A stretch of 64,000 nt of DNA from Leucoraja ocellata (lineage: Eukaryota), in NCBI GenBank assembly GCA_036785375.1, contig JAWMAR010000155.1, positions 1,178,001-1,242,000 of the forward strand, given 5' to 3'. Positions 11,512-26,195 of the stretch are shown piece by piece. A program made the position numbers and the translations under genes. The notes under the pieces were generated by a model. The model was given only the letters and a program-made list of their open reading frames with translations. It ran no database searches and was not told where the DNA came from. Numbering within the stretch: the first letter of the stretch is position 1; each line of letters opens with the position of its first letter.

Positions 11512-12657
11512 CTGTGTGAGTTCTTTTGTGGATCTTGAGATTTTCTGATCGAGCAAAGACTTTGCCGCAGCCGGGGAATGGGCAGGGAAAAGGTTTCTCG
11601 CCAGTGTGGACCCTGATGTGATTTACAAGTTTATATTTGGCTTTGAAAGGCTTTCCCTCTCTTGGACACTCTTCCCAGAAACAGATATGGTTCGACTGCT
11701 CTGGTCCCCCTACGTGTTCCACAGTTACGTGAGTCACAAGTTCGTGCATCGTGCTAAAAGTTTTTGAGCATGGTTTTTAGTGACAGGGTCCGGCTCAGTC
11801 CACTTGCAGATCAGTTCCTGCTTGATAGGTTGCCTCATGTAGCGAAAGAAAGCACCTGGGCCGTGGTGGGCAGCTAGGTTCATGCCACCGTAGCTATGTA
11901 GAGGGGAAGAGGCAAAAGGATCACTCCTGGAACTTGCCACTTGGCTGTAGTGTTCAGACCTGGCGTACATATCTCCAGGTAGCCCCAGTCTTAACTGTCC
12001 GTTCAGATGGTGTCCAGTTGGGGCTGGATGGGGAGTCTGATCATGGAGTCCGGGGAATAGAGAGTGGCTTCCAGCTTCGGGGTGACCATGGTGTCCGGGA
12101 TAGCTACCTGTTGTTGATACAAACATTCCGTGGTGAGAACTCGTGCCAGGATATTGATCTGTGAGGCCAGGCATGACTGAGGATGTCAGATCTCTGCGGA
12201 TGAGGAAGTCTCTACCTGCCGAGATAGCCTGGGCAGTATAGCTGGCGTGAGAGTGCGAGACCGAGTAACTGACTGCTGCTGCCGCCTGCGCTGGGCCAAA
12301 CGCTGCCGTTGGATTGGAGACAACCTCAGCGTGGCCTGCCATATGATGGTGATGGTGGTGGTGGTGGTGGTGGTGGGGATGGGATGGGCTGAGTTTAAGT
12401 GCCGCGGCGGCTGCAGGGTGCCCCATGTGTTCAGGCCCGAATGGACTCGGCCCCAGGCGGGGTTCTCCAGTATTCTCCCCAGGGTGCGTGTGTGCCATTG
12501 AGTGGGGATGGCCGCTGAGCCCCGGGAAGCCTGTCATGCTCTGGGGGGGATGGTGATGATGATGATGGTGGTGCGCTCCTGCCAAGTCTACTAATCTCAG
12601 CGCTGGGTTTCGCTTGGCGAACGATGGGTCCACCATCGGAGCCCCCAAAGCATCCAT
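11512..12657 (-). CDS. zic4: Zic4 coding exon 1 (poly-His N-terminus, ZF-NC, ZF1-ZF3), with a 1-bp deletion frameshift at 11774-11778
   Basis: [31 protein letters not shown]...[19 protein letters not shown], continuing in a shifted frame as [13 protein letters not shown]...HKRTHT. Donor CAG|gtcagt at 11512/11511. 1146+1 nt gives phase 1, matching exon 2. Corrected protein is 525 aa. Divergent from Zic1, as in other vertebrates. Confidence 0.9.
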
Positions 12658-12779
12658 GCTTATAATGCCTGACTGCAGGAAAATAATAAAATAAACTTTT
12701 TTTTTTCAAAAGTTACCGAACTTTGAAAACTCGCCCTTTGCCAACGTGGAAAGCCATTCGGTGTAGAGAGTGCAGACGG

Positions 12780-13030
12780 ATGGCAGCAGCAGGAAGCATT
12801 GAGAAACTGAATTGAAATTCATGAACAGCTTTGTAGCCCGTCGGGCTCCGCGAGCAACACGCCGTCTCATTGGTGAGTTCCCAATGATAGACAGTGCCAG
12901 TTACGGACCCCAGACGGGACACATGCGTATTACACCCGACCGATGTTTGATGGGGTGGCGGGGAGGGGGTGGGGGGCAGGGCAGGGCATTGGTAATGGGT
13001 AAGGGAAGGAGGGGGGGAGTTGAGGGGTGA
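12780..13030 (-). promoter_or_regulatory. Putative Zic4 proximal promoter
   Basis: GC/CpG-rich. CCAAT boxes at 12869-12873 (ATTGG), 12881-12885 and 12988-12992, and a G-run block at 12951-13030, all within 400 bp of the ATG. Confidence 0.55.
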
Positions 13031-24927: not shown

Positions 24928-24975
24928 ATGATTGCCGCTATCATTCTCGAGCTCACCGCCCGGCTGATGAGGTGA
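24928..24975 (+). other. Upstream ORF 1 in the presumed Zic1 5' UTR (MIAAIILELTARLMR*)
   Basis: ATG at 24928 to TGA at 24973-24975, between the promoter motifs and the main ATG. A second uORF lies at 25018-25071. Confidence 0.45.
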
Positions 24976-25219
24976 AAGTTTCTCCCCAGGAAGATAAACC
25001 GCAAAAGACAATATTGCATGATTTGCGTTTGCAGAGGGGGAAAATATCTTCAGCAAATTCCCACACGCTGAAGAGAGAGAAGAGAGAAAAATAAGGAGTT
25101 TTTGCAAGTCCTGCAGACAGACTCAGAGACTATTTTATATTAAGCAAGTTTCGTTGTGAATTGTTTGTAGTTTGCCTTTCTATATATTATTGTTCACTTT
25201 CTACCCCCATCGCCAGACG

Positions 25220-26195
25220 ATGCTTCTGGACGCTGGACCTCAATATCCTACTCTAGGAGTGACTACCTTCGGATCATCCCGACATCACTCAACAGGCGAT
25301 GTCAACGACCGAGAAGTGGGACTGGGGATAAATCCTTTCGCTGACGGGATGGGTGCTTTTAAAATCAGCCCCAGCACTCACGATCTCGCATCGGGTCAAA
25401 CTGCCTTCACGTCGCAGGCACCAGGCTACGCCGCGGCTCTGGGTCACCACCCCGGCCATGTGAGTTCGTACAGCAGCGCTGCTTTCAACTCGACCCGGGA
25501 CTTCTTGTTTCGCAATCGGGGCTTTGGGGAAGCGGCGGCGGCAAGTGCCGGTCACAGCCTCTTCGCTTCGGCCGCGGCTGCGGGCAGTTTTGCCGGACCC
25601 CATGGACATACCGACGCTGCGGGGCATCTACTCTTCCCGGGGCTTCACGAGCAGGCGACGACCCACGCTTCTCCAAATGCACATGTAATGAACGGGCAAA
25701 TGCGCTTAGGCTTTTCTGGGGACATGTATGGCAGAGCAGACCAATACAGCCAGGTCACTAGTCCCAGATCGGACCACTACGCCTCGACCCAGCTACACAG
25801 TTATGGTCCCATGAACATGAACATGGCGGCCCACCATGGGGCCGGGGCCTTCTTTCGATATATGAGGCAGCCCATAAAGCAAGAACTGATATGTAAATGG
25901 ATAGAGCCCGAACAGTTGACGAATCCTAAAAAATCATGCAACAAAACTTTTAGCACGATGCACGAACTAGTTACACACGTAACTGTGGAACACGTAGGGG
26001 GACCAGAACAGTCGAACCATATCTGCTTCTGGGAAGAGTGTTCAAGAGAGGGAAAGCCTTTCAAAGCCAAATATAAACTTGTAAATCACATCAGAGTCCA
26101 CACTGGCGAGAAACCTTTTCCCTGTCCATTCCCCGGCTGCGGCAAAGTCTTTGCTCGATCAGAAAATCTCAAGATCCACAAAAGAACTCACACAG
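25220..26195 (+). CDS. zic1: Zic1 coding exon 1 (ZOC box, ZF-NC, ZF1-ZF3)
   Basis: [24 protein letters not shown]..., ZOC motif [35 protein letters not shown]. Donor CAG|gtatgg. 976 nt, phase 1. Confidence 0.97.

Follow-up and report, generated by a model that had tools for sequence, protein, structure and literature searches.

An old gene conversion as the most likely source of a near-identical zinc finger coding tract in the head-to-head Zic1 and Zic4 genes of the skate Leucoraja ocellata

The window analyzed here, a stretch of 64,000 nucleotides (nt) from the skate Leucoraja ocellata (contig JAWMAR010000155.1, positions 1,178,001 to 1,242,000), carries the genes Zic4 and Zic1, which share a tract of nearly identical coding DNA. 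The reverse complement of 11512-11764, in Zic4, differs from 25943-26195, in Zic1, at 8/253 nt (tract positions 27, 30, 33, 66, 84, 100, 153 and 183). Seven of the differences are synonymous and one is a Ser/Pro difference at Zic1 codon 275 (about window position 26042), exactly the count given in a preliminary description of this DNA, and the encoded protein is identical at 83/84 residues. No inverted repeat in the window is longer than the one made up of these two copies (269 nt, 96% identity, arms 14,150 nt apart). Judging from these sequences, the tract very probably records old, DNA-level, intrachromosomal and non-crossover gene conversion between the head-to-head Zic1 and Zic4 genes.

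The evidence that carries this reading comes from synonymous sites. We compared aligned codons for the same degenerate residue, omitting five codons of the linker in zinc finger (ZF) 1, and found the same codon at 74/81 positions in the tract and at 79/188 outside it (Fisher p = 2.5e-15), the latter made up of 35/96 in the N-terminus, 6/17 in the ZF-NC block, 24/51 in exon 2 and 14/24 in the C-terminus. The excess is retained when the tract is set against the two adjacent conserved blocks alone (30/68, p = 2.5e-10), and four-fold degenerate sites are identical at 31/34 positions in the tract versus 28/79 across the four outside blocks. None of 100,000 permutations gave a best-segment score as high as that observed. 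Just upstream, the ZF-NC block (GAFF...CKW), whose protein is the same in both genes, differs at 11/57 nt, as previously counted, and the synonymous divergence claimed for exon 2 (ZF4-5) is borne out by 36/165 differing nt. Codon matching outside the tract is at the level expected at saturation, and the synonymous distance (dS) is beyond correction in both neighboring conserved blocks, in agreement with the near-saturation that had been proposed for these paralogues. In the tract, dS is 0.148 (confidence interval (CI) 0.058-0.315; range 0.09-0.15). Local identity between the paralogues is thus far above that of the flanks at neutral sites and sharp-edged, as in a conversion tract. Convergent codon usage, or a common mutational equilibrium acting on an identical protein, might be invoked for a tract with so little protein divergence, but the codon usage of both genes predicts matches at 31/81 codons, the GC content at third codon positions (GC3) is intermediate and the protein-identical ZF-NC block shows no comparable matching; we rejected this explanation, to which we attach virtually no probability.

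The 3′ edge of the identity coincides with the exon 1 splice donor, as described before: the introns beyond it are unrelated, and the first five codons past the exon junction all differ between the genes. The 5′ edge is uncertain, with posteriors, based on background rates set by hand, of 0.33 for codons 242-245 in the length-variable ZF1 linker and 0.58 for codons 252-256. From codon 253 onward, the core of the tract contains four synonymous differences and one non-synonymous difference, all of them transitions. Codons 250-252 carry three adjacent synonymous transversions (p = 0.03 for adjacency among seven, noticed post hoc) and could represent an island left unconverted or else mark where the tract truly begins on its 5′ side.

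The spliced Zic1 protein matches its Leucoraja erinacea orthologue (XP_055501668) without a single difference (446/446 residues), and the Zic4 pieces of the window match Rhinoraja Zic4 at 290/294, 87/87, 51/51 and 87/90 residues. After removing the tract, we built a tree from 70 named proteins, chosen by hand out of 399 so that each gene and lineage had about one member, in which the Leucoraja and Rhinoraja orthologues stand in for the proteins of the window. Zic1 to Zic5 are each monophyletic (Shimodaira-Hasegawa-like approximate likelihood ratio test (SH-aLRT) 99) and Zic4 groups with Zic5 (100), while a Zic1+Zic4 clade is rejected both outside the tract (approximately unbiased (AU) test, p = 1e-5) and when exon 2 is taken by itself (p = 4e-4). 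These comparisons identify the window genes as true orthologues of Zic1 (subclass A) and Zic4 (subclass B) in a divergent tandem and place the Zic1/Zic4 split before the Zic4/Zic5 split, upholding the ancient paralogy claimed earlier. The A/B split has been described as a tandem duplication preceding the vertebrate genome duplications, which left the bigene pairs Zic1/Zic4, Zic2/Zic5 and Zic3/Zic6 (PMC7403390); the first of these, in its canonical divergent form, is the one in the window. A recent duplication of Zic1 or Zic4, in place of exchange between old paralogues, would account for the local identity of 97%, but it is refuted by the trees outside the tract: as the Zic1/Zic4 duplication is older than that of Zic4/Zic5, and far older than the divergence of the tract implies, the near-identity cannot come from a young duplication, and we regard this origin as practically nil in probability. 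A broad CpG-rich domain spans the pair, with CpG observed/expected ratios of 0.5-1.15 across both genes and their introns (sampled segments, 7933-27920) versus 0.27 at 38000-58000.

Could one copy have been overwritten by reads of the other gene during assembly or polishing? Three single-base frameshifts interrupt about 1.6 kb of Zic4 coding sequence, and Zic1 has none; the preliminary description, otherwise confirmed for the tract, omitted these frameshifts, one of which lies 10 nt from the tract. Since the orthologues are in frame at these sites, the frameshifts are probably consensus errors, and the Zic4 part of the contig is probably imperfectly polished. A Zic4 pseudogene is disfavored, the orthologues being intact at the three sites and the window pieces matching Rhinoraja Zic4. 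The spacer also contains two N gaps (206 and 310 nt) flanking a 25-nt island at 18893-19433, between Zic1 and Zic4, so that the relative orientation of the two genes depends on scaffolding; it agrees with the conserved head-to-head layout. Despite the poor polishing and the gap, a chimera is very unlikely. That seven of the eight tract differences are synonymous would have p = 1.2e-4 if they were random errors, and each gene agrees with its named skate and ray orthologues at the non-synonymous site: Ser275 occurs in Leucoraja Zic1 and in a record common to Mobula/Hypanus, and Pro in 15/15 listed chondrichthyan Zic4 proteins (15 listed out of 32 in the cluster). Cross-mapping of reads that are 20-25% divergent would not be expected either. 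These points lend indirect support to the two tract copies being distinct coding sequences rather than collapsed ones.

We then dated the last homogenization. Whale shark and zebra shark differ by a dS of 0.061-0.111 over about 50 million years (My) (PMC13100897); at these rates the tract would be 67-121 My old (CI range 26-257) and its core 42-77 My (11-202). The dS of Bmp2 and Bmp4 between sharks, 0.39 and 0.60 in 178 My (PMC6395752), gives about 45-70 My by our arithmetic. A pedigree mutation rate of 7e-10 (PMC10587355) was left out because it is expressed per generation. Taken at face value, the estimates put the last homogenization at some 45-120 My before the present (range about 10-260) and thus within the chondrichthyan lineage.

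Alternatively, the two genes may have been homogenized once, in stem jawed vertebrates, and then changed slowly by drift or under nucleotide constraint specific to the tract (exonic enhancer or splice elements), with no exchange within chondrichthyans. Jawed vertebrates split 420 My ago, and an exchange of that age predicts a dS of 0.51-0.93, for which the probability of at most 7/52 changes is at most 1.4e-4 at shark rates. Even so, a rate 2-fold below the slowest shark one would be enough, rates may be low in the CpG-rich domain that includes both genes, and non-coding constraint on coding exons is documented (PMC2831330, a paper that names Zic solely as a target gene). In addition, the tract protein is the same in Zic1 and Zic4 of shark and chicken, so that this identity is ancestral for jawed vertebrates. 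But saturation is seen in the neighboring blocks of this CpG-rich domain, Bmp2 and Bmp4, which are developmental genes too, reach the between-shark dS values given above (PMC6395752), and the core differences are all transitions, as expected of young changes. RNA folding of the tract is unremarkable (z = -0.88 and +0.99 versus synonymous-codon shuffles), with 0 Rfam matches across the window. We consider tract-specific nucleotide constraint unlikely on these sequences, and a single very old homogenization improbable as a whole.

Several observations nevertheless weigh against conversion within the chondrichthyans, or limit its reach. An age of 420 My is allowed if the tract evolves locally 2-4-fold more slowly; the dating uses synonymous rates of sharks, not of skate Zic genes, and the DNA comparison consists of the two paralogue copies of one skate window, other species being compared as protein only. 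The 70-nt difference-free run at the 3′ end of the tract is not significant (p = 0.09) and the transversion trio is borderline, so that neither is a firm signal of a gradient or of multiple events within the tract. GC3 is 0.45-0.49 in the tract versus 0.50-0.60 in the flanks, without a GC-biased signature. Skates and Mobula/Hypanus have Zic1 Ser275 and Zic4 Pro in common, which makes exchange that is frequent or still going on less likely; skates parted from stingrays well over 100 My ago, and the shared residues mean that the site was not swept in either lineage. Zic1 and Zic4 differ in tract protein at 4-6 residues in 4 ray-finned pairs, so that the process is not general. Tract-only protein trees mix Zic1 and Zic4, and neither class B monophyly (AU p = 0.38) nor a Zic1+Zic4 grouping (p = 0.50) is rejected; the shared tract protein state may be simply ancestral.

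Elsewhere, the tract protein of Zic1 and Zic4 differs at 0-2 residues in 3 chondrichthyan pairs and at 0-3 in 7 tetrapod pairs, and that of Zic2 and Zic5 at 3-9 in 7 pairs, which suggests that the Zic2/Zic5 pair escaped exchange; these same-lineage counts include several pairs drawn from related species instead of one species. Codon 275 of Zic1 is labile, with Pro in most tetrapods, in the sharks seen (Heptranchias among them) and in Callorhinchus, Ser in batoids and Ser, Ala or Val in teleosts, and because of this lability a parallel gain of Ser275 is possible. Both Zic1 and Zic4 have Ala275 in Hymenochirus and in Ranitomeya variabilis, two of the three same-species amphibian pairs; Ambystoma has Pro275 in both genes. 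As Xenopus Zic5 also has Ala, the shared amphibian Ala275 is a weak signal.

How might the conversion have come about? In the experiments reviewed in PMC3924818, gene conversion is efficient once identity exceeds about 80% and homology about 200 bp, and its rate drops with distance. The Zic tract offers 220-253 bp of homology at 97% identity, 14.2 kb apart. It is the sole gap-free homologous block above about 200 bp, the others being 57 nt and about 114 nt long and both saturated. Purifying selection would maintain about 250 bp of ZF1-ZF3 coding DNA without gaps and with the same protein in both genes, and this block would be the only one long enough to pair because it is flanked by the length-variable linker and the non-homologous intron. 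Repair of a break in one Zic gene may occasionally have used the other, 14 kb away, as template, and a non-crossover outcome would have moved the tract between Zic1 and Zic4 at no cost, the tract protein being interchangeable between them. Crossovers between the inverted arms would flip the spacer, joining the 5′ portion of either gene with its partner's 3′ exons, and we infer that such Zic4::Zic1 chimeras are purged. A genomic template is favored over spliced RNA because the identity halts at the intron and the next five codons all differ; with both introns retained, a spliced-RNA template is disfavored.

The preliminary description had proposed recurrent conversion. Conversion between inverted paralogues stands as the best explanation; recurrence goes beyond these data, which date the last homogenization to tens of My ago and in which Ser275/Pro has been kept. 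Given conversion, we lean slightly toward several exchanges, leaving a patchwork, over one event, in view of the young-looking synonymous divergence around an apparently older residue difference and of the transversions in codons 250-252. A bolder scenario, which we hold to be rather doubtful, is that ZF1-ZF3 exchange has recurred intermittently over some 500 My in several jawed-vertebrate lineages, each on its own, and ceased in ray-finned fish and in Zic2/Zic5. If true, cartilaginous fish, birds and reptiles, and some frogs would have exchanged independently, the conserved head-to-head layout would be a repair template coupling the DNA-binding fingers of two diverged transcription factors, and occasional crossovers would invert the spacer to yield Zic4::Zic1 chimeras like the owl gene model described below.

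In the literature searched, the closest described case is that of CYP1A1/CYP1A2, in which regional gene conversion affects a head-to-head pair 23 kb apart (PMC3199271). Both are head-to-head vertebrate paralogues tens of kb apart (14 kb in Zic), homogenization is limited to parts of coding exons, and the last event is old and not ongoing. Unlike CYP1A1/CYP1A2, the Zic pair predates the vertebrate genome duplications, encodes developmental transcription factors and has saturated flanking synonymous sites; the CYP1A case was demonstrated by two-species quartet trees (PMC3199271), whereas the Zic case is known from the DNA of one species. In yeast whole-genome-duplication paralogues and ribosomal protein genes, too, purifying selection keeps coding DNA convertible while non-coding homology is lost (reviewed in PMC3924837), although these are whole-gene, dosage-type duplicates on different chromosomes, and the Zic tract is one domain segment of functionally diverged subclass A and B genes in an inverted tandem. 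Conversion of the L/M opsins, which keeps selected differences, offers a model for Ser275/Pro amid homogenized synonymous sites; the age of the opsins is 30-40 My and introns are the main site of their conversion (PMC3924837), and selection on Zic residue 275 would be an analogy.

The full-text literature searched, which covers few subscription papers, contained no report of gene conversion or concerted evolution of Zic1/Zic4, and a prior mention is possible. The available portion of PMC7403390 does not describe sequence exchange between Zic pairs, and that of PMC2988786 does not mention Zic1/Zic4 exchange; a paper on chick zic genes notes the high homology of the zinc fingers and, in its available text, nothing further (PMC2908108). 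For the idea of a PRDM9 or CpG-island hotspot, the available text of PMC8892340 has nothing on skates. Conversion as a process is well known; by the literature searched, its occurrence in so old a gene pair would be new. If our reading is correct, developmental regulators converted hundreds of My after synonymous saturation elsewhere in the genes, which bears on how long protein constraint and linkage let paralogues keep recombining and adds a factor other than regulation to the forces that shaped the Zic1/Zic4 pair. Zic trees and dates based on the zinc fingers would mix histories and need partitioning, and skate probes, guides, RNA-seq reads and assemblies over the tract can mistake Zic1 for Zic4.

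Table 1. Coordinates of the Zic1/Zic4 features in the window
Feature	Position	Strand	Remark
Zic4 tract copy, second half of ZF1 to ZF3, ends at splice donor	11512..11764	-	best-supported core 11512-11731
Zic1 tract copy	25943..26195	+	core 25976-26195, codons 253-325
Zic4 main 5′ coding exon: ATG 12657, subclass B N-terminus, ZF-NC block, ZF1-3	11512..12657	-	
Zic4 3′ coding exon, ZF4-5 and C-terminus, synonymous sites saturated versus Zic1	7928..8364	-	
Zic4 stop, matching orthologues	about 7928-7930	-	
Zic1 coding exon 1	25220..26195	+	
Zic1 coding exon 2 (ZF4-5), without homogenization with Zic4	27757..27920	+	
Zic1 coding exon 3	28321..28521	+	
Internal control: ZF-NC block, same protein as Zic4 11800-11856	25844..25900	+	6/17 degenerate codons same
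Length-variable ZF1 linker, 2 codons longer than in Zic4; interrupts colinearity 5′ of tract	25901..25942	+	
Three adjacent codons, 250-252, with synonymous transversions	25967..25975	+	
Zic4 frameshift: A-run one base short, 10 nt from tract	11774..11778	-	15/15 listed chondrichthyan Zic4 in frame
Second Zic4 frameshift: one extra base	8206..8207	-	15/15 listed chondrichthyan Zic4 in frame
Third Zic4 frameshift: one base short near end	7943..7944	-	13/15 listed show expected C-terminal motif
Spacer between inverted arms, 14.2 kb, contains both 5′ ends and assembly gaps	11765..25942	.	

Further features of the gene pair lie next to the coding exons. On the minus strand, read-through of the Zic4 donor (11503-11511) encodes GQY in skate and emu Zic4 models alike, which suggests that a Zic4-specific donor context has been kept since early jawed vertebrates and never converted. 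Also on the minus strand, 22670-22877 resembles the N-terminal part of a pigeon Zic4 isoform (74.6% over 59 residues) and has an in-frame stop and a frame change in the skate; by this similarity it would be a conserved exon or non-coding element situated 10 kb upstream of the main Zic4 exon. Adjoining it on the opposite strand, 22526-22646 (+) is similar to the extended N-terminus of a Zic1 model from Callorhinchus, and the 5′ ends of long transcripts from Zic1 and Zic4 may overlap.

Among 326 scorable named proteins, one Zic4::Zic1 chimeric model was found, in the owl Otus sunia (UniRef A0A8C8E846, P0120). It has a Zic4 5′ exon, Zic1 exon 2 and an apparent read-through of Zic1 intron 2, and could come from an inversion, a repeat mis-join or a mis-oriented contig. 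Three further chimera candidates proved to be pattern errors on Zic2 proteins, and another, P0416 (scores 200 versus 191), was a Zic5 misclassified by a narrow margin. The Anas platyrhynchos protein XP_027303888.1 (P0363), named ZIC 4, is Zic5-like with a duplicated ZF1-3 block, probably an assembly or annotation artefact. Named Zic6, chimaera Zic4, cyclostome Zic and invertebrate Zic proteins were absent among the 120 matches listed in each protein search. Skate Zic3 (P0228, P0231) is unusually diverged from other Zic3 in ZF1-2.

Finally, a dispersed repeat of about 95 nt, presumably a family resembling short interspersed elements (SINEs), occurs at 550-664, 40729-40828, 41077-41175, 43853-43983, 44266-44366 and 57755-57886, with an inverted pair at 43906-44343 and no copy in the Zic gene domain.

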